64,000 nucleotides of DNA from Alphaproteobacteria bacterium (GTDB taxonomy: Bacteria > Pseudomonadota > Alphaproteobacteria > UBA7985), in NCBI GenBank assembly GCA_965660945.1, contig CBFIBS010000012.1:23461-87460 (forward strand), read 5' to 3'. The notes under the pieces were generated by a model. It was not told where the DNA came from. It saw only the letters and a list, made by a program, of their open reading frames with translations, and ran no database searches. Below are positions 9,601 through 64,000 of this stretch, in pieces; position 1 is the first letter of the stretch; every line of letters starts with the position of its first letter. Position numbers and translations under genes: made by a program.

Positions 9601-9651
9601 GTGGGTTGTTCCGTCGCTGTAGCGGGTCACTCAGGTCATCGATGGTGTCGT

Positions 9652-10734
9652 TCAGAGCCGCATTGCAGCGCGTGCGGCCAATTGCAGCATACGAGACAGA
9701 ATCCTGCCGGCAAGCCGCTGACTACGGCTCGCGCGACGCAGATCAGCGACAAGGTATTCGATGGCCGGCTGGGCGCCCCGGTTTCTTTTGAACTGTTCAG
9801 CACCGGCACTCCAGTTGGCAAAGCGCTGACGCGATCGTGCGGTTGCATCGCTCAGGCTGATCAGCCATCGATAGAGACCCAGTTTTTGGGGCAGGTCAGT
9901 GTCGTAACCGACCACCGGACTGACGATTGTACCGTGTTGGTCGAACTGCCCCAGAACGCCGACCATTCTCCCACCGCGTTCAGGGTCGAAAAGGCCGGTG
10001 AGTTCAAAGCCGCATTGGTTCTGAAACTCTTCAAAAAAGCGACCAGTATATTGCGGGTTGAGGTGGCTGTATTTCTCGATGTAGAGCATCCGGTAGAGCC
10101 TGGCGGCCTGGTCAAAATCACTTTCACCAAACGTAGTGCCAGCCCGTTCGATAAACCGGCCTGTCGAACGAAGCCTAACATCTCGTTGATCATCGCGGGT
10201 TCGGTGCCAATCTTCCGGATAGGTGCGGAAAAATATTTTCCGGACGGGAAGCAGGGTCAGTCCTTCGCGGTGAAAGGCCTCAATGAGTGGACCGTGCGCT
10301 GCATCGTTTACGGAGCGCAGCACCGGAACAAAGCTCGGATTACTGTCGGACACGGCGTCAAAAGCATCCAACCAGGCCTCAGGCCCGACTGGTGGCAGGA
10401 TATTTGTCGACACCAGCCAGTTGTTGAGTTGTATCTGACGACCGAGTTGCATGGCCCGCACGACCGGAAAGGCTGCCCTAAGGGCTCCAGAACCAAGAGC
10501 GCGCAACAACGGATTTCGGGTAACTTGCGACAACTCGAATTGGCCGTATTCGAGATAGGCGGTAGACGGGCAGCAGATGTAGCAGGTCGGACGACGGCCA
10601 TCGTTGATGGTCGTTGGCACCTCGAAGTCCCCGACGCGTGAGATCATCATTTCTGTCTCAAGGTTGGTGACGAGCGAGCTCGTTCCAGCCGTCTGCACTA
10701 ACGAGACGAATTGGCGTGCTGAAGTGTCTTGCAC
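9652..10734 (-). CDS. Uncharacterised 360-aa protein, possibly a FemAB-like or GNAT-fold acyl/aminoacyl transferase (guess)
   Basis: This is a long ORF in a locally lower-GC segment, transcribed divergently from the KAS III operon. I recognised no diagnostic motif, so the family call is tentative. Confidence 0.35.
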   Translation of the reverse strand: MQDTSARQFVSLVQTAGTSSLVTNLETEMMISRVGDFEVPTTINDGRRPTCYICCPSTAYLEYGQFELSQVTRNPLLRALGSGALRAAFPVVRAMQLGRQIQLNNWLVSTNILPPVGPEAWLDAFDAVSDSNPSFVPVLRSVNDAAHGPLIEAFHREGLTLLPVRKIFFRTYPEDWHRTRDDQRDVRLRSTGRFIERAGTTFGESDFDQAARLYRMLYIEKYSHLNPQYTGRFFEEFQNQCGFELTGLFDPERGGRMVGVLGQFDQHGTIVSPVVGYDTDLPQKLGLYRWLISLSDATARSRQRFANWSAGAEQFKRNRGAQPAIEYLVADLRRASRSQRLAGRILSRMLQLAARAAMRL

Positions 10735-10815
10735 CTATTGCTCTCTATCTTTGCCTTCGCCCGGTTTGGATATTTGGACAAAGACCTTACCAAGGCTGCT
10801 AGCGCTTCGCTAAGG

Positions 10816-10846
10816 TTGAATGCAATATAGCTTCTACAGTGATACT
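10816..10846 (+). promoter_or_regulatory. Candidate sigma-70-like promoter for the KAS III operon (-35 TTGAAT, spacer of about 17 nt, -10 GATACT)
   Basis: The elements are read directly from the divergent intergenic region between 10735 and 10862. Confidence 0.3.
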
Positions 10847-10862
10847 GCGTGGAGGGTGCGAG

Positions 10863-11861
10863 ATGCACTCTGGTTCAAGAATTTGTGGCTGGGGCCAAGC
10901 CTTACCCCGAAGGAAGCTGGCCTCGGGTATTCTGGAAAGTCAGCATGGGCTGCCCGCTGGCTCGCTTGTGGCATCCACCGGTGTTGAAACCCGCTACCTC
11001 GCCAGCCGAAGAGGGCATGAAACGCAGGTTGCACTCGGACTTCGGGCTGGTCAGGCAGCCCTGGCATCGGCCAACTTGCCCGCGTCATCGGTTGATTTGA
11101 TAATAGCAGCCGCAGCTGTACCCCAGCAGCTGATACCCGGCACTGCTGCGCTCTTTCATCGGGGGCTTGGTCTACCCGACGGCAGCTGCCGTACGATGGA
11201 CGTAAACACAACTTGCCTGAGCGCCCTGTCGGCGCTCGAACTGGCCGACAGTTACATCCAGACAGGGCGAGCAAGTCGGGTCCTGATCATCAGCAGTGAG
11301 ATTGCGAGTGCCGCCTTGCCCTGGAAAACCGCGCCGACGGTTGCCGCCCTGTTTGGGGACGGAGCCGGGGCGTGGCTTGTCGAAGGGGCAGATCAGCCGG
11401 GCATTCTCGGTTCGTCCTTTGCCAGCTTCCCTTCGGCTTTCGAGGCGTGCCAGATACCAGTTGGCGGGACGGCCAATACCCCGCACGATGATATTGATTT
11501 CTTTATGCAGCATGCATTTTTTGAAATGGATGGTGAGGCGCTGTACCGTCTGGTCCGGTCAGAGTTCGAAGGGTTTCTTTTTGCGTTCCTCGAACAAATT
11601 GCCTGGTCTCTGGATGATGTTGACTTCTTTGTTCCGCATCAGGCCAGCCCAGTTAGTCTCGTGCATATGGCCAGAGCATTCAGGGTGCGCCGCGAGCGAT
11701 ACATTGATCTGACGCGCAGTCACGGCAATCAGATCGCGGCTTCACTGCCCATTGCCTTCGCCGAAGCCCGCACAAGGGGGCAGATCAGCGATGGCTCTCG
11801 GGTCTTGCTGCTGGGAACCTCCGCGGGGGTGCAGTTTGGCGCTGCGGCATTGATCGCCTGA
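10863..11861 (+). CDS. 3-oxoacyl-ACP synthase III-like condensing enzyme (FabH / KAS III family)
   Basis: The Cys-His-Asn catalytic triad is in context (NTTCLSAL, VPHQASP, HGNQIAASLP), and the N-terminal region resembles FabH. An alternative GTG start lies at 10839. Confidence 0.8.
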   Translation: MHSGSRICGWGQALPRRKLASGILESQHGLPAGSLVASTGVETRYLASRRGHETQVALGLRAGQAALASANLPASSVDLIIAAAAVPQQLIPGTAALFHRGLGLPDGSCRTMDVNTTCLSALSALELADSYIQTGRASRVLIISSEIASAALPWKTAPTVAALFGDGAGAWLVEGADQPGILGSSFASFPSAFEACQIPVGGTANTPHDDIDFFMQHAFFEMDGEALYRLVRSEFEGFLFAFLEQIAWSLDDVDFFVPHQASPVSLVHMARAFRVRRERYIDLTRSHGNQIAASLPIAFAEARTRGQISDGSRVLLLGTSAGVQFGAAALIA

Positions 11862-12862
11862 TGCGGGTCCTCGTTACCGGTGGGACAGGCTTTCTTGGCG
11901 GACGTTGTCTGCAGGCTCTGGCGTCGTCGGGTCGGTTCGATGCATCTGCGACAGGACGCCGTCTTTCGAGCGCGCCTGCAGGCTTCGACTTCATCGCTGC
12001 CGACCTCAGTGAGCCAGGGGCACTTGCGCGGCTTCCCGCCGTCGATGCAGTGGTCCACACGGCGGCCCTGTCATCACCTTGGGGCCGCGCGCAGGATTTT
12101 GACCAGGCAAACGTGGTTGCGACGCGCAACCTACTTGAATGGGCAGAGCAGGCAGGTGTGCAACGCCTGATCCATATCTCGACCCCCGCGCTGTACTTTG
12201 CTCCCTTCGACCGTTTTGATGTCGGGGAGGAGGAGGTCTTGCCGGGCAAGCCCATCAACGACTATGCCCGGACTAAGGCACAAGCGGAGAATCTCGTGCT
12301 CCAGTCGCCTCTCAGTACGGCCATCTTGAGGCCCAGAGCAATTTACGGGCCGGGCGACACGGCACTTTTACCCCGGCTCGAGGCCGCGTTGCGACGCGGC
12401 TGGCTGCCACTCATGCGGGACGGGCAGGCCGTGACAAACCTGACCCATGTTGACGACGTATGCGATGCCATTGTTGCTGCTCTGGAAAGTTCGGCACAGG
12501 GGGTCTTCAATATTGCAGGGGGTGAGGCGATCCCGCTGAACTGGCTGGTCAACGAAATTGCCAGAGCAAACAGCTTGGCATTCCGCTGGCAGACCGTTCC
12601 TCTGCCTATAGCCATGCTCGCTGCGCGCGGCACAGAAGCCGTCTTCACTGGTTTGAGACTGCCAAGTGAGCCGCGGCTTACCCGCTACAGCCTGGGCATC
12701 TTCGCCTATAGTCTGACGCTGAATACCAAGCGGGCCCAGGAGGTCTTAGGCTGGCGACCCCGAATTCTAATAGCCGATGGTTTCGAGGCGATCTTCGGCG
12801 TGCGCCCTGAGGCTTTACCCACACACAGGCGCGCTGACGATGGCAAAGAGCAGGCCTCATGA
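11861..12862 (+). CDS. NAD-dependent epimerase/dehydratase family protein (extended SDR)
   Basis: The N-terminus VLVTGGTGFLG is an extended-SDR motif and the length is 333 aa. The junction with the upstream gene is a TGATG overlap. Confidence 0.8.
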   Translation: MRVLVTGGTGFLGGRCLQALASSGRFDASATGRRLSSAPAGFDFIAADLSEPGALARLPAVDAVVHTAALSSPWGRAQDFDQANVVATRNLLEWAEQAGVQRLIHISTPALYFAPFDRFDVGEEEVLPGKPINDYARTKAQAENLVLQSPLSTAILRPRAIYGPGDTALLPRLEAALRRGWLPLMRDGQAVTNLTHVDDVCDAIVAALESSAQGVFNIAGGEAIPLNWLVNEIARANSLAFRWQTVPLPIAMLAARGTEAVFTGLRLPSEPRLTRYSLGIFAYSLTLNTKRAQEVLGWRPRILIADGFEAIFGVRPEALPTHRRADDGKEQAS

Positions 12863-13737
12863 AATTCGAATTTTATAACAGCGCAACAATCAAGGCGCCC
12901 GGCGCTTTGGTCGGGGCAGGGCCCGACTGGTCGCCGGTCACACTCAAGGTGCGCTGGGCTTTCCTCGATCACCCGACATTCGGACCAACCCTGGTCGATA
13001 CTGGTTATGGCCCGTCGACCTATCCATCGCCGGCATCGGGTCGTTCTTCGCCGAGCGGCAATGGTTTACCAACCCGCAGCATCGGGCTTCGACTGTATAC
13101 GAGCCTGTTCCGGGCCAGACTACGACCCGAAGGACAGATTGACGCCGTATTGGTCGACAAGGGTCTGACCATCGAAGACATTCAGTGCGTGATTGTCACC
13201 CACTTTCATGTCGATCATGTGAGCGAATTGCGCCGCTTTTCCAATGCGCGCATCCTCGCCAGCCGGCGTGGCTTCGACGCGGTTAAAAGGGCTGGCTGGC
13301 GTGCGTCCTTGGTTCACGGGACCTTTACTGAGCTTTTGCCACCGGATTTAGACCGGCGATTGGAGCCGATTGAGGCCTTGCCGCCCATCAATCTGCCGGA
13401 CGGGCTTGGTACTGGCTGGTCGCTGGTGCCAGAACTGGCCTCACTGGTGCCAATGAACGGTCATGCGACGGGGCAAGTCGGAATTTATATCCATAGCGAA
13501 CACTATCTCTACGCTGTCGATGCGCACTTTGTACTCGGTGCTCTTGATCGCGCCGCCGAGGGCTTTGAACCGGGTCTGACCAAGCCAAAGGTCGCGCTCT
13601 CCGGTCTGCCACGCCTCATAGCCGATGATATTGAAGCGGCGGAAACCACCCTTGCGCGGCTTGCTGCCTTCAAGCAGGCCGGGGGCCGGGTCGGGCTCTG
13701 CCACGATCCTGGTCACGATCCGTTCGATGCCGGTTGA
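12859..13737 (+). CDS. MBL-fold metallo-hydrolase (lactonase/thioesterase-like)
   Basis: The HxHxDH motif is present (VTHFHVDHV). The junction with the upstream gene is an ATGA overlap. Confidence 0.75.
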   Translation: MKFEFYNSATIKAPGALVGAGPDWSPVTLKVRWAFLDHPTFGPTLVDTGYGPSTYPSPASGRSSPSGNGLPTRSIGLRLYTSLFRARLRPEGQIDAVLVDKGLTIEDIQCVIVTHFHVDHVSELRRFSNARILASRRGFDAVKRAGWRASLVHGTFTELLPPDLDRRLEPIEALPPINLPDGLGTGWSLVPELASLVPMNGHATGQVGIYIHSEHYLYAVDAHFVLGALDRAAEGFEPGLTKPKVALSGLPRLIADDIEAAETTLARLAAFKQAGGRVGLCHDPGHDPFDAG

Positions 13738-15025
13738 AGCGGGAATGGCCGTCCTGGCGGCGTTTGTGCGGGCGCGTTGGCTGGCTGCGACCTTGCGCAC
13801 GCGTGAGGATGTTTTGCGCCATCAGCGCAGACAAATGGCATCGTGGCGCGCCGCGCTTACCACCCACTTTCCTCACCTTAAGGCCGAGGATCTCGAAATG
13901 GACAAAGCGCAGCTGATGGCGAACTTCGCTACCTATAACCGTGATGGTATCAGCGCGCGCACTGTTCGCACCGCGCTCGATCGGGGCGAGGCAGCCGAAG
14001 GGGGCCTGGCGCCCGGTTTGTACTGTGGTGTTTCGAGCGGGACGTCTGGCAACCGGGGGCTTTACATCATCACAGAAGCCGAGCGCTACCGCTGGCTGGG
14101 TACGATCCTCGCCAAGGGGTTACCTGACGTTTGGCGGCGGCGGCATCGCGTTGCCGTGATCCTGCCACAGAACAGCGCACTCTATAGAGCCGGAAATCAA
14201 TCCCGCTGGTTGAAGCTTGCATTCTTTGATCTCAGGCAGGGTCCGGCGTCTTGGAAAGAGGCGCTCGCTGACTTTGACCCGACCGTCATCATTGCTCCGC
14301 CCAAAATCTTGCGCTGGCTGGCCGAGAATGCTGATCTCGGCCGTCTCCGCCCGCAGCGGCTTTTTGCGGGGGCGGAGACACTCGATCCACCTGATCGCCG
14401 GATCGTTGAGGCAGCCTTTTCTCTCCGTCTGGGTCAGATTTACATGGCGACCGAAGGCCTGTTTGCCATCAGTTGTAGCCAAGGGCGGCTGCATCTGACG
14501 GAGGACTTTGTCCGGTTCGAGTTCGAGCCCGTCGGCGATCAGCTGGTCACGCCCATTGTCACTGACTTCTCCAGACACTTTCAGCTCACATGCCGCTATC
14601 GCATGAATGATCTTCTTCGGCTGGGCGGTCGAGGCTGCCCTTGCGGTTCCCCTCTCCAGGTTGTGGATGCGGTGGAGGGCAGGCAAGACGACGTGTTCTG
14701 GTTCGGCGATCGGATGGTCACCCCCGATGTACTGCGAAACGCGGTGCTAGACTGCAGCCCGTCGATCACGGATTTCCGCATTCAGCAGCGGCTCGATGGA
14801 TCGGTGGATCTCCGCCTGCCATCAACAGTCGAACCCGCTGTCCAGAAATCAGCACTCGCTGCCCTTGAGGGTGCACTGCACACGGCGGTGCCGGTTCAGC
14901 GGTGTACGCCGGATACAAACGAACAGACCGAGGGCCCCATCCTAGTCCGACTAGCCAGCTGGAACCTGACCCCCGAGCAACTCCTGTCGCACAAACTGCG
15001 GCGGGTCGAGCGGTTAAGGTCATGA
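13727..15025 (+). CDS. Adenylate-forming enzyme, phenylacetate-CoA-ligase / coenzyme-F390-synthetase-like family
   Basis: The P-loop-like acyl-adenylate motif GVSSGTSGNRGLYI is present. The start is uncertain (ATG at 13727 or 13745), and the longer reading frame overlaps the MBL gene. Confidence 0.6.
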   Translation: MPVEAGMAVLAAFVRARWLAATLRTREDVLRHQRRQMASWRAALTTHFPHLKAEDLEMDKAQLMANFATYNRDGISARTVRTALDRGEAAEGGLAPGLYCGVSSGTSGNRGLYIITEAERYRWLGTILAKGLPDVWRRRHRVAVILPQNSALYRAGNQSRWLKLAFFDLRQGPASWKEALADFDPTVIIAPPKILRWLAENADLGRLRPQRLFAGAETLDPPDRRIVEAAFSLRLGQIYMATEGLFAISCSQGRLHLTEDFVRFEFEPVGDQLVTPIVTDFSRHFQLTCRYRMNDLLRLGGRGCPCGSPLQVVDAVEGRQDDVFWFGDRMVTPDVLRNAVLDCSPSITDFRIQQRLDGSVDLRLPSTVEPAVQKSALAALEGALHTAVPVQRCTPDTNEQTEGPILVRLASWNLTPEQLLSHKLRRVERLRS

Positions 15026-16224
15026 AACGAACGGTACTCATTACGGGCCTCAGGGCGCCTGTGGCCCTGCACTGGTGCCGATTGTTCGCGGCGGCTGGCT
15101 GGCGGGTCTTCGGTGCCGACAGCCTCCGCGACCCGGTTGGTCGGTTTTCACGTTCTATCGAAGGCTACTTGCATTTGCCTCCACCGCGATCAGAACCGGA
15201 CAATTTTGCCAAAGCCATCACCAGCGCGGTTGAAGAGACTGACGCTGATCTCATCCTCCCTACCTGCGAGGAAGTGCTTTTCTTGGCCTGGGCTGCCCTG
15301 CGCCCCGAGGCCAAAGGTTGGGCTCAGCGGCTCTTTGCCCCATCACTCGAAGACCTGATCACACTCCACGACAAAGCCGCTTTCAATGCACTGCTCGCTC
15401 GCGTGGCACCGGATTTTGCGCCGTCCTTTCAAAGCCTAGAAACTGGCGCCGACGCGGCGGCCCTCGGCGAGGGGCCGTGGGTGTTCAAGCCGAGATTTTC
15501 GCGATTTGCCACCAGCGTCTTGATCAAGCCGGACCGGGCTAAGATCCTCAGGTTACCCATATCACCCGAACAGCCCTGGTTGGCGCAGGCTTATCTGCCC
15601 GGCGAGGAGATCTGTTTGTCTGCCGTCGCTGTAGGGGGGCAGGTCCTGGCCTTACAAGCCTATGAACCGCTGTTACGGTTGCGTCAGGGGCGAGGTGCCA
15701 GTGTCGCCTTTGCTGCCAGCGAGGATGGGGTCTGCTCCCAGCTGCGTCCTATGGTCGAGGCAGTCGCCAAGGCTTTGAACGTCACCGGGCAGCTCTCCTT
15801 TGATTTGCGTCGGGATGCTGAAGGGCAATGGCGCGCCCTGGAGTGCAATCCGCGTGCGACCAGTGGGTTTCACTTCTTCGGCCCTGATGATGGTCTGGTG
15901 GAAGCCGTGGACCAGGGGCGGAGCGCGCTCATGGCCCGGACCCGCCCGACAGGAGAAGTTTTGGGTGAGGCCGTTCCAGCGCTGCTCGCCGGGGGGATCA
16001 GGGGGCTGTCACTCTGCCTTGGTCTCATGCGGTCAAAGGCCGGAGCGAGCCGGCGCTTGCGTCCCTTGAGTGCATGGCCCGGAGATACGATTTCTCCGCT
16101 TGAACAATCTCGGGCCTTTTTCGAACTTTGGCTTCGATCCCGCGCGCACCGATGTTCATTGGAGGAGGCTTCCACCCTCGACATCTGCTGGAATGGACCG
16201 TCTGATCGATCGCCGTTGCCTTGA
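15022..16224 (+). CDS. ATP-grasp domain protein (carboxylate-amine ligase-like)
   Basis: The ATG at 15022 overlaps the upstream stop (ATGA). The central region has an ATP-grasp-like pattern (WVFKPRFSRFATSV...EICLSAV...ECNPRATSG). Confidence 0.55.
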   Translation: MKRTVLITGLRAPVALHWCRLFAAAGWRVFGADSLRDPVGRFSRSIEGYLHLPPPRSEPDNFAKAITSAVEETDADLILPTCEEVLFLAWAALRPEAKGWAQRLFAPSLEDLITLHDKAAFNALLARVAPDFAPSFQSLETGADAAALGEGPWVFKPRFSRFATSVLIKPDRAKILRLPISPEQPWLAQAYLPGEEICLSAVAVGGQVLALQAYEPLLRLRQGRGASVAFAASEDGVCSQLRPMVEAVAKALNVTGQLSFDLRRDAEGQWRALECNPRATSGFHFFGPDDGLVEAVDQGRSALMARTRPTGEVLGEAVPALLAGGIRGLSLCLGLMRSKAGASRRLRPLSAWPGDTISPLEQSRAFFELWLRSRAHRCSLEEASTLDICWNGPSDRSPLP

Positions 16225-16257
16225 GGCGCCCTTACCGAGCATGAGTGGTTGAACAAC

Positions 16258-17454
16258 TCAGCCTCGGTTGATGGTGGCGTCGTGCTCCACGGCCCAGGCC
16301 TCGACCCGCGGGTTGAGAACCCGGAACCACAGCGGCGGGAACAGCGCCAGCAGGAAGGTTCCCGGATAGCCGGTGGGCAGATGCGGGACGTCGTCGAAGG
16401 TGCGCAGCACCTGATAATCCCGCCAGGCGTGGGCATGGTGATCACTGTGGCGCTGGAGGTTGAACAGCAGCGCGTTGGACAGCCACTGGTCGGCGTTCCA
16501 GGAATGGATCGGGCGCACCGGCTCGTAGCGGCCCTTGTCGTTGAGTGCCCGGCCCAACCCGTAGTGTTCCACGTAGTTGGCCTGTGTCAGCATGAGCCAG
16601 CAGATCAGGTGGTGCAGGGCAAGCAGCGGCAGCATGATCCAGCCGAAGGCGAGGATCAGCGGCGCAGCGAGCAGGGCGCTCAGCCCCCAGATCTGCAGCA
16701 ACTGGTTGGTGGGGTGCCAGAACGCGCGCTGCTTGGTCTTAAGGCGGCGGGCCTCGATCTGCACTGCCCCAATGATGGCCCCGGGGACTTCGCGCAGGGC
16801 GAAGGCGTAGAAGCCCTCGCCGAAGCGGGCGCTGGCGCAGTCCTCGGGCGTGGCGACGCGGCTGTGATGGCCGGCGTTGTGCTCTAGGGTGAAGTGGCCG
16901 TAACCGACCAGCGCGTTGGCGATCTTGGCAGCGCGCCGGTCGAGCTTCTTGCCCGAATGGCCCAGTTCGTGGCCGACGTTGATCAACGTGCCGTGGAACA
17001 GTGCCGCGCCCGCCACCAGCACGAGCGTTGCCAGCGGTCCGCCATAGCCCCCCGGCGACGGCTCGCTGGCCCAGGCGTTGATCCACAGCCCGGCCGTGAT
17101 CAGCACGGCGTAGATGCTCGCCGCGTAGATCGGAACGGTCAGGTACAGCAGCGCCTTGAAAAACGGGTCACGCCCGGCGCGTTGCTCCTGCTCGGGGCTG
17201 AGGTTGATCCCGTCGCGCCCGCAGGCGAGGTCCAGCAGCGGGATCAGGCCGTAGAGGATCACCGGCAGGCTCAGCGCCAGCCAGGGCTGGTCCCAGACCC
17301 AGACCAGCGCCAGTACCCCCGGCGCGATCAGCGCGGTGACAAAGCCCACCAGCCAGCGGACCCGGAAGGCCCGGGGCAGGCGGACTTGCGACGGGGGCTT
17401 GGTCGCCGGGCTCGTCGCTGGGTTGGTCGCTGGCTTGGTCGCGGGCTTGGTCAT
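16258..17454 (-). CDS. alkB: Alkane 1-monooxygenase (AlkB family integral-membrane di-iron hydroxylase)
   Basis: All histidine boxes are present: HELGHS, EHNAGHH, NYVEHYGL and LQRHSDHHAHA. The N-terminus carries a (T/S)KPA x5 repeat. Confidence 0.85.
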   Translation of the reverse strand: MTKPATKPATNPATSPATKPPSQVRLPRAFRVRWLVGFVTALIAPGVLALVWVWDQPWLALSLPVILYGLIPLLDLACGRDGINLSPEQEQRAGRDPFFKALLYLTVPIYAASIYAVLITAGLWINAWASEPSPGGYGGPLATLVLVAGAALFHGTLINVGHELGHSGKKLDRRAAKIANALVGYGHFTLEHNAGHHSRVATPEDCASARFGEGFYAFALREVPGAIIGAVQIEARRLKTKQRAFWHPTNQLLQIWGLSALLAAPLILAFGWIMLPLLALHHLICWLMLTQANYVEHYGLGRALNDKGRYEPVRPIHSWNADQWLSNALLFNLQRHSDHHAHAWRDYQVLRTFDDVPHLPTGYPGTFLLALFPPLWFRVLNPRVEAWAVEHDATINRG

Positions 17455-17839
17455 GGCCTGACTGTGCGAAACCAGCCTGCGGGCGTCAAGCGTGGGGCGG
17501 CAGGCGCGACAATGCGCAAGGGCTGCGCGCGGCGCGGCGTTCACCGTGGCGGTGCTGGTGAACAAGCCTCTAGCCGGTCAATATCACCCAAAACGAGAAG
17601 GCAAAAATATTGATGACACCCAGAATGGTCAGATTGTTTCACCGCCGACATCGCTGAAATACCGGGAAAACCGCCGTTTCCTTTGTTCAAGCGGCGGACA
17701 AGCGGGCGTTACGGAAGCCTGCGAAAACCCTCCTCGTCAACCACGACGTCCTTTCCACTCTCCTAACCCCGCAACCTCCCTCCCTCCCGTCTCTCCTTCT
17801 CCACCACAGAGTCCAAGACCCCATCAAAGGAACAAACCC

Positions 17840-18292
17840 ATGCTTCTCAAATCCGCCCTCAAAGTCGCTGCTGCTTCTGCTGCTGTCCTCGTGGCTTCGA
17901 CCACCGTCGCGACCAGTGCACAGGCCTTCTGGTTCAATACCGTCAACATCAACCAGTATGGCTTCGACAACGCCGTTGCCGGCTCGCAGACCGGCGTCTT
18001 CAACCACATCGAATTCTGGCAGGACGGTGCCTGGAACACCGCCGTCACAGCGCAGGACGGCGCGGGCAACGTCGTTGCCATCGGCCAATCCGGCTTTGGT
18101 AATCAGGCCTATGGCGACCAGTTCGGCGACTGCAATGTCTCCGGGATCGGTCAGTTCGGCGGCGGTCACTACGCCGAGACCAACCAGAGCGGCGACTGTA
18201 ACGCTGTTGCGGTTCTGCAGTTCGGCTCCGGTCAGTCAACCACGGCCAACCAGGTCGGCTCCGGCAACTCCGCCGTGATCATCCAGTACTAA
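17840..18292 (+). CDS. Curlin-repeat protein (CsgA/CsgB-like amyloid subunit)
   Basis: It has a signal peptide followed by about ten repeats of Q-x-G-x-x-N-x-A-x-x-x-Q (for example QDGAGNVVAIGQ, QSGFGNQAYGDQ) and ends in Y. Confidence 0.85.
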   Translation: MLLKSALKVAAASAAVLVASTTVATSAQAFWFNTVNINQYGFDNAVAGSQTGVFNHIEFWQDGAWNTAVTAQDGAGNVVAIGQSGFGNQAYGDQFGDCNVSGIGQFGGGHYAETNQSGDCNAVAVLQFGSGQSTTANQVGSGNSAVIIQY

Positions 18293-18293
18293 G

Positions 18294-18314
18294 CGCCCCC
18301 TGCGCCCGGGGGCG
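18294..18314 (+). terminator. GC-rich hairpin just after the curlin stop codon (CGCCCCC-tgcgccc-GGGGGCG)
   Basis: A perfect 7-bp GC stem is visible in the sequence. There is no clear U-tract. Confidence 0.3.
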
Positions 18315-18386
18315 GGGCGGGGCTGGTCCATTGCCACTGGCGCGGCGGACTGGCCCCACCTCCCTCTCTATCACTTCCTCTCTTTG

Positions 18387-18425
18387 CCTCTTCCTCTTCC
18401 TCTTCCTCTTCCTCCTCTTCTCTCT
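18387..18425 (+). repeat. (CCTCTT)n hexanucleotide microsatellite inside an 80-nt polypyrimidine leader
   Basis: The sequence cctcttcctcttcctcttcctcttcctcctcttc is read directly; the leader is more than 90% C+T. Confidence 0.8.
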
Positions 18426-18446
18426 GTTTGCTCAAGGAACCCCGTC

Positions 18447-18881
18447 ATGTCTTTCTCGCTCAAAACACTCAAAATCGCCGGCGCTGCAGCCGTTGCTTCT
18501 CTCTCGCTCGCCGGGATGAACACAGCTGCCCAGGCCGACGCCCAGCTCTCTGGTCAACTCTCCATCGGTATCCAGGGCTCGAACCCCGAAGAAAACGCGG
18601 CCATCGCCAACGGCCTGTTTCTCTACGCCCTGTTTCAGGGGCTGAATGGTGATACCGCCATGCTGCAGCAGCTTGGCAACGGCAACGCTGCGAGCCTGTC
18701 GCAGGGTGGCTTCGGCAACTTTGGTATCGTCGAACAGAATGGCGATGGTCATACGGCGAGCTTGGATCAATCCGGCAACCAGAATGCCTTCGGCCTGTTC
18801 CAGTTCGGTGAAGGTGCTACCGGCCACGTCAGCCAGTCGGGCAGCGGCCAGTCCGGCCTGCTGTTCCAGTTCGGGTTCTGA
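18447..18881 (+). CDS. Curlin-repeat protein, second paralogue (CsgA/CsgB-like)
   Basis: A signal peptide is followed by repeats such as QLGNGNAASLSQ, QGGFGNFGIVEQ, QSGNQNAFGLFQ and QSGSGQSGLLFQ. Confidence 0.85.
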   Translation: MSFSLKTLKIAGAAAVASLSLAGMNTAAQADAQLSGQLSIGIQGSNPEENAAIANGLFLYALFQGLNGDTAMLQQLGNGNAASLSQGGFGNFGIVEQNGDGHTASLDQSGNQNAFGLFQFGEGATGHVSQSGSGQSGLLFQFGF

Positions 18882-37853: not shown

Positions 37854-38822
37854 GTGCTTGAGCAAGCGTGCGTGCCGCCGTTGGGAGCTAGCAGATATTT
37901 GGTCACGACCCTTCCCATTAGCTCTCGAGAATGGGATCTTTACCGGACTTTTCTGTCCGTGGGATCGCTAGCGAATGTCGACCTGATCACGGCCGATCTG
38001 AGTATTTCAATCCCGACCCTTCGCCGACGTATAGCCCGACTTGAAGACCTCCATGGTTTCAAGCTTTGCCGGAACGCCGGGAGTCGATTTTCTCTAACCG
38101 CTGATGGTCAGGCGCTGCTGAGCTCGCTGCGGTCTGCCGATGACATCCTAGCCAACCTCAATCGACTGGATGTCCAATCCGGTGAGGCATCGCTGGAGAT
38201 ATTGCAGATTCGCTCAACCCAGAGGCTGATTGAGGATTTTTGGCTGCCGCTGGTTCAGTTTCGTCCCGCGATGTTTGAAAACGTCCACCTCAGGTTTTCG
38301 ACCCTCAACGGGTTTGAGGACGACCTGCAAAGCGACATGGTCGTTTCCGTGGCGCCGCAATTGCGAATTTCAGCCGGCGACAAAGTCGAGACGGTGGGGA
38401 CGGTGGAGTCCTGCTTCGGGGGCTATCAGAGTTATGTCCAGACCTATGGTATTCCAGGGCTGGAGGACCTCAAGGAGCACGTGTTTATCCGCTCTGATTG
38501 CTTTCGGAGCGACCCGGAGTTCTGGGATGAAGTTATTGAAATTGAACGACGCTGCTCGAGGAGCATTCGGGTGCCGCACTATCCGATGGCCCAGCGAATG
38601 GCCCGGGCTGGTTTGGGCTTCACGGTGTGTACTAGTTTCGGGCAGGCCTTTGACAACGACGTTCAAATTTTCTCGCATCTGGGACGCAGGCAGACGCCCA
38701 TTTTCGCCGTCTTTCATGGATCGAACTGGCGCGGACAACGTGGGTTTCAGCTGAGGGAAGATGTGCTGAAGGTCATGAAGAACTCGTTCCGCGGTATTTC
38801 TGACCATGGGGCGCGGCGTTAA
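37854..38822 (+). CDS. LysR-family-like transcriptional regulator (divergent)
   Basis: The N-terminal HTH is LysR-like (WDLYRTFLSVGSLANVDLITADLSISIPTLRRRIARLEDLHGFKLC). The true start is uncertain (ATG at 37854, or GTG/TTG slightly downstream). Confidence 0.5.
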   Translation: MLEQACVPPLGASRYLVTTLPISSREWDLYRTFLSVGSLANVDLITADLSISIPTLRRRIARLEDLHGFKLCRNAGSRFSLTADGQALLSSLRSADDILANLNRLDVQSGEASLEILQIRSTQRLIEDFWLPLVQFRPAMFENVHLRFSTLNGFEDDLQSDMVVSVAPQLRISAGDKVETVGTVESCFGGYQSYVQTYGIPGLEDLKEHVFIRSDCFRSDPEFWDEVIEIERRCSRSIRVPHYPMAQRMARAGLGFTVCTSFGQAFDNDVQIFSHLGRRQTPIFAVFHGSNWRGQRGFQLREDVLKVMKNSFRGISDHGARR

Positions 38823-39856
38823 TGGCCAGTCAGCTGCCGAAAAGCCTCGCGAGTTGGAGCCTTATCCGCTCCTTCCTTTCGCTGGCCTATTTTTTGGAGT
38901 ACGGGCCCGCAGCGCGCGAGTTGAACGTCTCTGTGCCCGCACTGAGGCGGCGTATCCAGCGTCTTGAAACGTACTTGGGCTACAGCCTGCTTGTGTATGA
39001 GCGCCGGACCATGAAACTGACAGAGGCCGGCCAGAAAGCTCTCGAAATTGCATTCAACGCCGATCGGCGGATTGCCGCCATCCGAGACAACGAAGACCAG
39101 ATCCGACAGGCATCCCGGCCACCCCTGAGACTGGCGATGGATGAGAATGTACTGACTTACTTCTGGATCCCTTTCTGCGTTCGCCACGCTGCCTTGCTCG
39201 AACGGTACCAGATTTCAGTGCATGTTGATCGGATCCCGGATTTTTCCGGCGGAGCCGACACCGACTGTGCTTTCAGCTTTGGCGACGCGCCGCAGCTGGC
39301 GGCGATTACCGAACCCGTTGGTTCCTTTGGTGTCTACTTTGCCGGCCACGAGGCCTATGTGGCGCTGCACGGCATTCCAACGTTAGATACCTTGGGGGAA
39401 CACACCTTCATTCGCCCGGAGACCGATCTGTTTGAAACGCTGGGTGGTGCCTTGCTTGATGATGTCGAACGTCTGTCTGGCGCGACCATCCGGGTCGATT
39501 CCGTAGGCCTGGCCGACCAAGCGTCCCGGTTGGGTCTGGGCTACTACTTCGGCACGTCTTGGCTGGAGCGCGAGGGCTATGTGCTCTTTCCCGGTTTTCC
39601 GGTCATCCCGATGGTGACCTACGCCTGCATCAGTGAAGAATTTGCGGTGGAACCAGCCAACCGGAAGTTTATCGACACGATGATTGAAGAGGCGAAGCTG
39701 TTCTTCAGGGATCGGGACCCCGAGGAGCAGTTTGTTCCCGTGGCGGTAAAGGTCGGTCTCAAGGCGAGCAAAGAACTCCGGCCACTCAACACGCTGGCAA
39801 GGGTTGGGCCACGGGCAGGACCAAAAAGAGGTGGTAGGGGTCGGGACAAGAATTAG
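38822..39856 (+). CDS. LysR-family-like transcriptional regulator, tandem paralogue
   Basis: The HTH is LysR-like (WSLIRSFLSLAYFLEYGPAARELNVSVPALRRRIQRLETYLGYSLL). The start and the upstream stop overlap (TAATGG). Confidence 0.5.
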   Translation: MASQLPKSLASWSLIRSFLSLAYFLEYGPAARELNVSVPALRRRIQRLETYLGYSLLVYERRTMKLTEAGQKALEIAFNADRRIAAIRDNEDQIRQASRPPLRLAMDENVLTYFWIPFCVRHAALLERYQISVHVDRIPDFSGGADTDCAFSFGDAPQLAAITEPVGSFGVYFAGHEAYVALHGIPTLDTLGEHTFIRPETDLFETLGGALLDDVERLSGATIRVDSVGLADQASRLGLGYYFGTSWLEREGYVLFPGFPVIPMVTYACISEEFAVEPANRKFIDTMIEEAKLFFRDRDPEEQFVPVAVKVGLKASKELRPLNTLARVGPRAGPKRGGRGRDKN

Positions 39857-63430: not shown

Positions 63431-63444
63431 TGCAATCGTTTACA
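63431..63444. promoter_or_regulatory. LacI-family operator palindrome TGCAATCGTTTACA (fits TGNAANCGNTTNCA)
   Basis: It is a perfect fit to the generic LacI-family half-site arrangement and lies between the lacI-family gene and the divergent ABC binding-protein gene. Confidence 0.5.
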
Positions 63445-63494
63445 TATAGGCTGCGTTGGGAGTGTAATCCTTTTCATTACCCTCTGCTAGGTAT

Positions 63495-63508
63495 TGTAAT
63501 CGATTGCA
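63495..63508. promoter_or_regulatory. Second LacI-family operator palindrome TGTAATCGATTGCA
   Basis: It has the same consensus fit and lies 64 bp from the first. Confidence 0.5.
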
Positions 63509-63569
63509 GGGCTTTGGAGGGCCCGATTTGTTCACGGGAAAGCTTGTCTTTCCAAGGGAGGAATACCTC

Positions 63570-64000
63570 ATGATGAAACTTAAGTCGGCTGCAGTCGCAG
63601 CTGCTGCCCTCGTTGCGTCTGTTGGCGTTGCCGGGGCGGAAAAGATGGAAGTCACCCACTGGTGGACTTCTGGTGGTGAAGCTGCGGCCGTGTCCGTATT
63701 CGCCGACGCAGTAAATGCTTCCGGCCACGAGTGGGAAGATGCGGCAATCGCTGGCGGTGATAACGCCCGTGCTGTCATTCTTTCACGGATTGCCGGTGGC
63801 GACCCAATGGCAGCGACGCAGCTGAACACTGGTCGTGACGCGGAAGATCTGGTTCAGGCAGGCCTGATGACTGATCTGACCGACCTCGCAGAAGCTGAGG
63901 GTTGGGCTGACTTCATTCGCCCATCCAAGTTGCTCGATTCCTGTACCTACGAAGGCCGCATCTACTGCGTGCCGGTTAACATTCACTCTTTCCAGTGGAT
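63570..64000 (+). CDS. Sugar ABC transporter substrate-binding protein (family 1 extracellular solute-binding protein), 3'-truncated by the window edge
   Basis: A GGGAGG RBS lies 9 nt upstream. The signal peptide is MMKLKSAAVAAAALVASVGVAGA, and the N-terminus is MEVTHWWTSGGEAAA... as in SBP_bac_1 proteins. Confidence 0.75.
   Translation, partial: MMKLKSAAVAAAALVASVGVAGAEKMEVTHWWTSGGEAAAVSVFADAVNASGHEWEDAAIAGGDNARAVILSRIAGGDPMAATQLNTGRDAEDLVQAGLMTDLTDLAEAEGWADFIRPSKLLDSCTYEGRIYCVPVNIHSFQW

Follow-up and report, generated by a model that had tools for sequence, protein, structure and literature searches.

What might a compact group of genes for a condensing enzyme, a reductase, a hydrolase, an adenylating enzyme and a ligase make when no nonribosomal peptide synthetase (NRPS), polyketide synthase (PKS) or acyl carrier protein (ACP) accompanies them? 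This question is raised by a six-gene cassette at 9652-16224 in a 64,000-nucleotide stretch of DNA (hereafter the window) from a bacterium of the alphaproteobacterial lineage UBA7985 (assembly GCA_965660945.1, contig CBFIBS010000012.1, positions 23,461 to 87,460 of the forward strand). Judging from gene content and gene order, the set represents one version of a modular cassette that is widespread and in which a fixed core is combined with alternative sets of tailoring genes. As for the chemistry, we lean tentatively towards a core that builds a β-hydroxy carboxylic acid scaffold, which would then be conjugated to amino acid(s) without NRPS, PKS or ACP. The elements of the cassette, with their positions in the window, are as follows:

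9652-10734, - strand: tandem-GNAT (GCN5-related N-acetyltransferase) gene, 360 aa, encoding a protein of Fem/MprF structural class that is predicted to transfer (amino)acyl groups
10735-10862, no strand: divergent spacer of 128 bp, GC content 0.484, with a TTGAAT block and a Shine-Dalgarno sequence
10863-11861, + strand: FabH-like β-ketoacyl-ACP synthase III (KAS III) gene, 332 aa, PF08545/PF08541
11861-12862, + strand: extended short-chain dehydrogenase/reductase (SDR) gene, 333 aa, PF01370, with the motifs TGxxGxxG and YxxxK
12859-13737, + strand: metallo-β-lactamase (MBL)-fold hydrolase gene, 292 aa, PF00753, with a complete binuclear metal site
13727-15025, + strand: F390/PaaK-like adenylase gene of the ANL superfamily, 432 aa, with the P-loop SSGTSG
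15022-16224, + strand: ATP-grasp carboxylate-amine ligase gene, 400 aa, assigned by PRK06849 and by fold match

The five + strand genes overlap at every junction, by 1 nt (TGATG, at 11861), 4 nt (ATGA, at 12859 and 15022) and 11 nt (13727-13737), so that a single operon is their likely structure. An earlier unaided reading of these letters (the original prediction) had given the same five open reading frames (ORFs) and the same junctions and had noted the absence of NRPS, PKS and ACP, in agreement with our Pfam scan of eight proteins, in which no domain of a carrier protein, NRPS or PKS turned up. It overlooked the sixth gene, on the - strand at 9652-10734, which belongs to the cassette. A + strand ORF of 346 aa with a GTG start (9601-10641) is antisense to this 360-aa gene and has no Pfam match, and was rejected as a shadow ORF.

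Distribution and modularity of the cassette family

Relatives of the adenylase are present in at least 317 species, a lower bound because the census was a narrow pattern scan with one genome per species. Marine alphaproteobacterial metagenome-assembled genomes labelled Geminicoccus sp. and Rhodospirillaceae carry sequence 96-97% identical to the window. Module counts were taken over 68 related loci with full flanks. All four core genes (KAS III, SDR, MBL, and adenylase) were found in every one of the 68; ATP-grasp and tandem-GNAT genes accompany them in 57 loci, of which 46 also have a Rieske gene, and the core stands alone in seven. The order KAS III-SDR-MBL-adenylase was seen in every locus whose gene list was inspected, by inspection rather than by a formal tally, and the same four-gene order occurs in Escherichia coli, Ralstonia, Paraburkholderia, and Ketogulonicigenium. 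The core as such extends over Alpha-, Beta-, and Gammaproteobacteria and the Bacillota. The set had been put forward as a local oddity; its presence in all 68 related loci, and in E. coli, Ralstonia, Paraburkholderia, and Bacillus besides, speaks against this.

The genes around the core vary from one host to another. Paraburkholderia has the core with ATP-grasp and GNAT genes, and plasmid p249 of Bacillus mycoides has the order KAS III-ATP-grasp-SDR-MBL-adenylase followed by a gene for a 381-aa tandem-GNAT homologue; Pontibacillus shows the same five-gene order with no GNAT homologue. In E. coli and Ralstonia the core is combined with a PAP2 phosphatase, a "sterol desaturase," and an acyl-CoA desaturase, the "sterol desaturase" of the E. 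coli type having the ornithine-lipid hydroxylase OlsE as its best match. Ketogulonicigenium and Ruegeria combine the core with a sulfotransferase. In Ponticaulis koreensis (L045 3498-12561), a branched-chain keto-acid dehydrogenase complex (E1α, E1β, E2) is encoded directly 5' of the core and a GT1 glycosyltransferase directly 3', a layout suggestive of starters of branched acyl-CoA type and of a product that is glycosylated. Across genera, no further neighbour family was found to be conserved, just generic ABC ATPases.

The E. coli form is a seven-gene island between narI and tyrTV(-purU) (L084 4023-10904; L087 5001-11882) that carries generic annotation only. It was found in 674 of 5,426 complete E. 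coli genomes (12%), including LF82, NRG 857C, ABU 83972, and uropathogenic (UPEC) isolates. This island and its Ralstonia counterpart share the core and its order with the window, and the F390-related protein is 35.5% identical to that of the window over the aligned 72% of the query (H11). The adenylase family is not always tied to the core, since on the megaplasmid pMPPla107 of Pseudomonas amygdali (L086 6791-8089) an F390-synthetase-related gene is surrounded by hypothetical genes and lacks KAS III, SDR, and MBL partners.

Database names for members of the family are uniformly generic ("F390 synthetase-related protein," "CoF synthetase," "hypothetical protein," "ATP-grasp domain-containing protein," "GNAT family N-acetyltransferase"). 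Neither these names nor a full-text literature search yielded a product, function, or phenotype for the cassette, the E. coli island included; most subscription journals were out of reach of that search, so a published characterisation is possible. The earlier statement that the operon could not be assigned to a described pathway therefore stands. The ATP-grasp/GNAT system of the lipocone paper is a different one. PADLOC gave no anti-phage match, and the cassette is not a defence system.

Enzymes of the core and their predicted partners

The condensing enzyme matches Pfam PF08545 and PF08541 and scores 240 bits with PRK07204. With the fabH model TIGR00747 it reaches 154.6 bits, against a cut-off of 292. 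Its best PDB match is the FabH structure 4dfe (E 2e-40), followed by the pyrone-forming MxnB and CorB, and PqsD is found at 3e-19; OleA structures match only in part (residues 241-328 or 59-150), at about 1e-16 to 1e-17. Its Cys-His-Asn triad aligns with C112, H244, and N274 of E. coli FabH. The SDR matches PF01370 at 3e-34, and its best named family is OleD (2-alkyl-3-oxoalkanoate reductase), with 164 bits over the full length for NF042422 and 119 bits for NF042423; HpnA and thioester-reductase domains are the next-best models. The OleD models are also the best match of the E. coli counterpart. With the galE model TIGR01179 the SDR scores 57.6 bits, against a cut-off of 262. No close solved structure was found for it.

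The hydrolase has a binuclear metal site of the pattern HxHxDH~H~D~H, in which the ligands H115, H117, D119, H120, H202, and D221 are invariant in 12 homologues and the C-terminal His, outside the invariant list of the alignment tool, was read by eye from the alignment blocks. Run against the PDB, the family profile matched the N-acyl homoserine lactone (AHL) lactonase 9khq at 3e-25, GcL at 3e-19 over the full length, AiiA at 1e-17, and 4-pyridoxolactonase at 4e-17, and the thioesterase PqsE at just 6e-4. The single sequence scored 33.6 bits with NF045699, whose cut-off is 375. From these comparisons we place the protein in a lactonase-like branch of the fold, as a relative, not a member, of the AHL lactonases (AiiA, AidB, AttM, GcL).

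The adenylase narrowly misses TIGR02304 (239.9 bits over residues 7-369; cut-off 251.9). Because the core adenylase of E. coli scores 755.5 bits with it, it is the E. coli type that this model captures, the window protein being a divergent relative. A weak and partial PF00501 match was found, and PF04443 gave none. Its only relatives in the PDB are phenylacetate-CoA ligases (PaaK 4r1l, 1e-6) and AjiA1 (6wuq, 1e-5), and its 1,411 homologues bear generic names throughout.

The ATP-grasp protein scores 230 bits with PRK06849 and has weak Pfam matches to PF15632 and PF02655. A PDB search with the single sequence gave no match; the family profile matched carbamoyl phosphate synthetase (CPS) and BL00235. 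Its AlphaFold2 model (mean predicted local distance difference test, pLDDT, 91.7) has the three-domain ATP-grasp fold, and Foldseek ranked BL00235 (3vot, 2e-16), RizA, and BacD/YwfE first, then PurK and PurD. In its modelled structure the protein is thus closest to the L-amino-acid ligases BL00235, RizA, and BacD/YwfE, and we predict it to be a ligase.

The enzyme assignments of the original prediction are upheld by these searches. The FabH-like condensing enzyme with an intact Cys-His-Asn triad, the extended SDR, and the MBL-fold hydrolase with HFHVDH were all matched by the expected Pfam families (PF08541/PF08545, PF01370, and PF00753), the triad aligning with that of E. coli FabH and HFHVDH being invariant in the family alignment; the ATP-grasp carboxylate-amine ligase is in keeping with the weak ATP-grasp matches, PRK06849, and the predicted structure. 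For the PaaK/F390-type adenylase, the SSGTSG motif is present and TIGR02304 comes near its cut-off, and the expected PF04443 failed to appear.

The 360-aa product of the divergent gene has an orthologue with 76% identity on a TARA Oceans contig, and its homologues adjoin the adenylase gene in almost every related locus. In Mesorhizobium, an opposite-strand gene of ~390 aa was considered as the homologue; it encodes an ATP-grasp protein, and the true homologue is directly 3' of the adenylase gene. At the sequence level, the only signal is a weak one to Acetyltransf_6, in 16 of 28 homologues, with no FemAB or DUF2156 Pfam match for the 360-aa protein. Its AlphaFold model (pLDDT 93.9) has the tandem-GNAT fold of Fem/DUF2156 type, closest by Foldseek to the aminoacyl-tRNA-dependent transferases FemX and MprF. 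Fem transferases, MprF, and the aminoacyl-tRNA-dependent peptide synthase Sbb17 are ~10% identical to the window protein, which has no membrane flippase domain. PDB 2wpw, which we take to be Orf14 of clavulanic acid synthesis, is also among the fold matches. In the clavulanic acid pathway, the ATP-grasp ligase Orf17 and the tandem GNAT Orf14 act on one intermediate.

A profile of the tandem GNAT recovered 1,450 representative clusters among 1.84 billion proteins. The library of representative proteins contains ATP-grasp::tandem-GNAT fusions of 660-783 aa and one tandem-GNAT::Rieske fusion of 524 aa (P0313, P0363, P0375, P0411, P0307, and P0299), and the N-terminal half of one ATP-grasp::tandem-GNAT fusion shares 32% identity with the ATP-grasp protein of the window (E 2e-50). 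Because natural fusions join them, we argue that the ATP-grasp, GNAT, and Rieske proteins act on one substrate.

The proposed product and its alternatives

In the scheme that we tentatively favour, the adenylase would activate a carboxylic acid, KAS III would form a C-C bond by Claisen condensation, which may be decarboxylative as in FabH or non-decarboxylative and head-to-head as in OleA, and the SDR would reduce the 3-keto group; the MBL hydrolase would make or break an ester, thioester, or lactone bond and so release or process an intermediate. The scaffold leaving the core would be a β-hydroxy acid, probably fatty or lipid-like, made with no acyl carrier protein. At its carboxylate the ATP-grasp enzyme would form an amide, and the tandem GNAT would place on a hydroxyl or amine an acyl or aminoacyl group whose donor may be aminoacyl-tRNA, giving a small lipo-amino-acid or pseudopeptide. 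We propose a β-hydroxy acid of fatty type because the partners found beside the core need a hydroxyl (sulfotransferase, glycosyltransferase, Fem/MprF-like protein), a carboxylate (ATP-grasp), or an aliphatic membrane substrate (desaturase, OlsE-like hydroxylase, PAP2). The original prediction had already read the operon as making an acylated, amide-linked small molecule without NRPS or PKS, a reading that is strengthened by the likeness of the ATP-grasp model to L-amino-acid ligases and of the tandem GNAT to Fem/MprF.

In ornithine lipid, an amide bond joins a 3-hydroxy fatty acid to an amino acid, and the molecule is O-acylated before being hydroxylated. Its synthesis by OlsB/OlsA and the hydroxylases OlsC/D/E is a functional analogy only, apart from the E. 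coli-type hydroxylase with its best match in OlsE: the Ols enzymes are unrelated to those of the cassette, and the Ols route uses acyl-ACP and single-domain acyltransferases. Nothing in the cassette points directly to an ornithine-lipid-like product.

Several observations weigh against this scheme. Every step ascribed to the cassette family is read from family resemblance. KAS III is nearer to FabH than to OleA, and the SDR, at 164 bits against a cut-off of 580, is far from membership in OleD. Aryl acids are frequent substrates of PaaK-like ligases, so a scaffold other than a lipid is conceivable. In true F390 synthetase the group that becomes adenylylated is a hydroxyl, not a carboxylate, and the window adenylase may for this reason have a different chemistry. 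Two carboxylate activators (the ANL adenylase and the ATP-grasp enzyme) together with a lactonase-like MBL are more than a simple scheme needs. Because the MBL is far nearer to lactonases than to PqsE, a lactone intermediate would fit better than plain thioester release, and the lactonase-like MBL next to an OleD-like SDR is a hint of a β-lactone intermediate. As regards the tandem GNAT, its structural similarity to Fem/MprF is moderate (Foldseek TM 0.44-0.53, at ~10% identity) and without membership at the sequence level, and an acyl-CoA donor is as plausible as aminoacyl-tRNA.

A wider version of the proposal deserves still more reserve, and we consider it rather doubtful. According to it, the core would be an undescribed carrier-protein-independent scaffold machine with interchangeable tailoring modules, spread over several phyla and including B2-type E. 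coli, and responsible for a hidden family of lipids or signals; in the window, a Fem/MprF-like enzyme would use aminoacyl-tRNA together with the ATP-grasp enzyme to make a lipo-amino-acid without NRPS.

The alternative that survives best, unlikely as we judge it, is a route like that of OleABCD. KAS III would join two acyl chains head to head, the SDR would reduce the 2-alkyl-3-keto acid, the adenylase would close a β-lactone as OleC does, and the MBL would open or decarboxylate the lactone in place of OleB, the product being a β-lactone, a mycolic-type 2-alkyl-3-hydroxy acid, or an olefin, later tailored. The four functional roles correspond one-to-one, for both systems have, without a carrier protein, a thiolase-fold condensing enzyme, an extended-SDR 3-keto-acid reductase, an ANL adenylating enzyme, and a hydrolase acting on lactones; OleD is the best named family of the SDR in the window and in E. 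coli alike. When the components are taken singly, however, the families differ. KAS III matches FabH at 2e-40 and OleA only over the C-terminal part, at 1e-17, and the SDR has the shortfall given above; the adenylase shares the ANL superfamily with OleC and is of the TIGR02304/PaaK-like, F390 type, not an OleC-type β-lactone synthetase, and the hydrolase belongs to PF00753, no OleB-type α/β-hydrolase being present in the cassette. The MBL profile does match lactonases over the full length, at 1e-17 to 3e-25, but hydrolysis of a β-lactone would merely reverse its own formation, and an olefin offers no handle to the ATP-grasp, sulfotransferase, and glycosyltransferase partners. The cassette also differs from OleABCD in gene order and in its added ATP-grasp and tandem GNAT. 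The loose echo of OleABCD that had been remarked upon is thus real in the SDR, whose best named match is OleD, and in the lactonase affinity of the MBL, but it does not extend to membership by component.

Somewhat less probable again is a route recalling the Pqs system, in which the PaaK-like ligase would supply an aryl- or arylacetyl-CoA, KAS III would extend it with malonyl-CoA as PqsD does, and the MBL would release a β-keto or β-hydroxy acid as PqsE does, amino acids then being added to yield an antibiotic or a signal that diffuses. A CoA ligase, a KAS III, and an MBL hydrolase working without a carrier protein is the logic of PqsA/D/E, and the cassette follows it with detectable relatives of PqsD and PqsE; moreover, the only solved relatives of the adenylase are phenylacetate-CoA ligases and AjiA1, and a Rieske oxygenase is a common partner in the cassette family. 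The relationships are distant, however. KAS III finds PqsD at 3e-19 against 2e-40 for FabH, and the MBL finds PqsE at 6e-4 against 3e-25 for a lactonase, so neither is of the Pqs type, and equivalents of PqsBC and PqsH are absent here, as the SDR and the amino-acid-adding enzymes are from the Pqs system. Aliphatic rather than aromatic substrates are indicated by the membrane lipid-type enzymes of the E. coli and Ralstonia forms (PAP2, OlsE-like hydroxylase, acyl-CoA desaturase) and by the branched-chain keto-acid dehydrogenase complex directly upstream in Ponticaulis. Since the defining components that were tested belong to another family or fall far below cut-off, the cassette belongs to neither OleABCD nor PqsADE, although its enzyme families suggest a broadly similar way of working.

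That the operon is catabolic or detoxifying, serving for example to break down acyl-lactones or aromatic acids, is very improbable in our view. PaaK-type ligases and thiolase-fold enzymes do occur in degradation pathways, and the MBL is closest to quorum-quenching lactonases, but KAS III carries a condensing triad, ATP-grasp ligases and Fem-like transferases form bonds, and the partners in other hosts are glycosyltransferase, sulfotransferase, and desaturases. The TRAP transporter and AlkB near the cassette, which would suit a catabolic role, are not co-conserved with it. Finally, a housekeeping origin, with a second fabH and a galE-type envelope sugar epimerase adjacent by chance, which the original prediction had itself named as an outcome that would overturn it, is refuted despite PF08541/PF08545 and PF01370 being common to FabH and GalE, because both proteins score far below the curated cut-offs of TIGR00747 and TIGR01179, and because gene set and order are conserved across phyla with an accessory distribution (12% of complete E. 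coli genomes, and plasmids).

If the favoured scheme of a β-hydroxy acid scaffold conjugated to amino acid(s) is true, the cassette would be a compact route to amino-acid-decorated molecules without NRPS, PKS, or ACP, nearest in kind to the carrier-independent pathways based on thiolase-fold enzymes. Orphan operons being common, the surprise is limited; what adds interest is how widely the family is spread, that 12% of complete E. coli genomes carry a sister form, that fusions occur, and that small-molecule synthesis may here employ a Fem/MprF-type transferase. The modularity and the natural fusions are direct experimental handles, and culturable hosts are available in Mesorhizobium, Roseibium, B. 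mycoides, and E. coli.

Divergent spacer, composition, and flanking genes

The first + strand gene most likely begins at the ATG at 10863, which has a GGAGG (10852-10856) 6 nt upstream and is the start shared by homologues. The spacer contains TTGAAT (10816-10821) and GATACT (10841-10846), previously described as a promoter-like element. Both hexamers are present, and the TTGAAT block is kept in the related loci L001 and L005; the 19 nt between them and the result of a sigma-70 scan, which called no promoter in the spacer or around the operon, count against the pair as it was drawn. In the more distant relatives L010-L013, a conserved TAGACATTGACAAGTT with a perfect TTGACA inside it lies ~70-90 nt 5' of the KAS III start, and the corresponding position in the window and in L001 reads TTGAATGCAA. 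This block could be a shared promoter or operator. No convincing terminator was found.

The GC content of the five + strand genes is 0.594-0.615 and that of the sixth gene 0.568 (~0.60 in total), compared with 0.661 for TauE and 0.685 for AlkB in the flanks and a window mean of 0.627. At third codon positions (GC3) the cassette has 0.61-0.68; the two flanking genes reach 0.86 and 0.89, and the upstream side lies at 0.75-0.88. The lower GC content claimed earlier relative to TauE and AlkB is therefore correct, and the drop in GC3 is sharp; the value then given, "mid to high 50s," was too strong, since the five genes lie at 0.594-0.615 and 24% of windows of the same size are as low.

The recent horizontal acquisition that had been read from this composition is not borne out. 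A relative at ~77% protein identity keeps the cassette between the same DctM and AlkB-curlin neighbours, with cassette proteins 70-84% identical and no more similar than AlkB (75%). In the lower-GC lineage of this relative the cassette hardly differs from its flanks, and in Mesorhizobium it has a host-like composition. No tRNA gene, Rfam family, or flanking direct repeat was found at the island borders. For the family as a whole, the patchy spread across phyla and onto plasmids indicates horizontal transfer.

The convergent alkB gene at the 3' flank is as predicted, a genuine AlkB on the - strand (PDB 8sbb, E 6e-77). AlkB was considered as a tailoring enzyme of the unit and rejected, as it has host-like GC3, is absent beside the cassette in L008-L013, and is unrelated to the E. 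coli-type desaturase. Other genes in the window also have low GC3, and the operon is not the only region of unusual composition, because further low-GC patches exist. The neighbouring features and these patches are:

16258-17565, - strand: alkB gene, convergent 3' neighbour of the cassette, with the PDB 8sbb match; in the AlkB homologue the membrane domain is preceded by an N-terminal repeat rich in Lys, Pro, Ala and Thr, KPATKPATNPATSPATKPP (near 17390-17460), which is also a short direct repeat in the DNA
17492-18881, + strand: two adjacent curlin-repeat genes (PF07012), a curli-like fibre locus, GC3 0.62-0.67, syntenic with L001
35396-35806: low-GC patch, an ORF of 136 aa, GC 0.50
37854-39856: low-GC patch, two genes, GC 0.556-0.583
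63440-63829: low-GC patch, one ORF, GC 0.554

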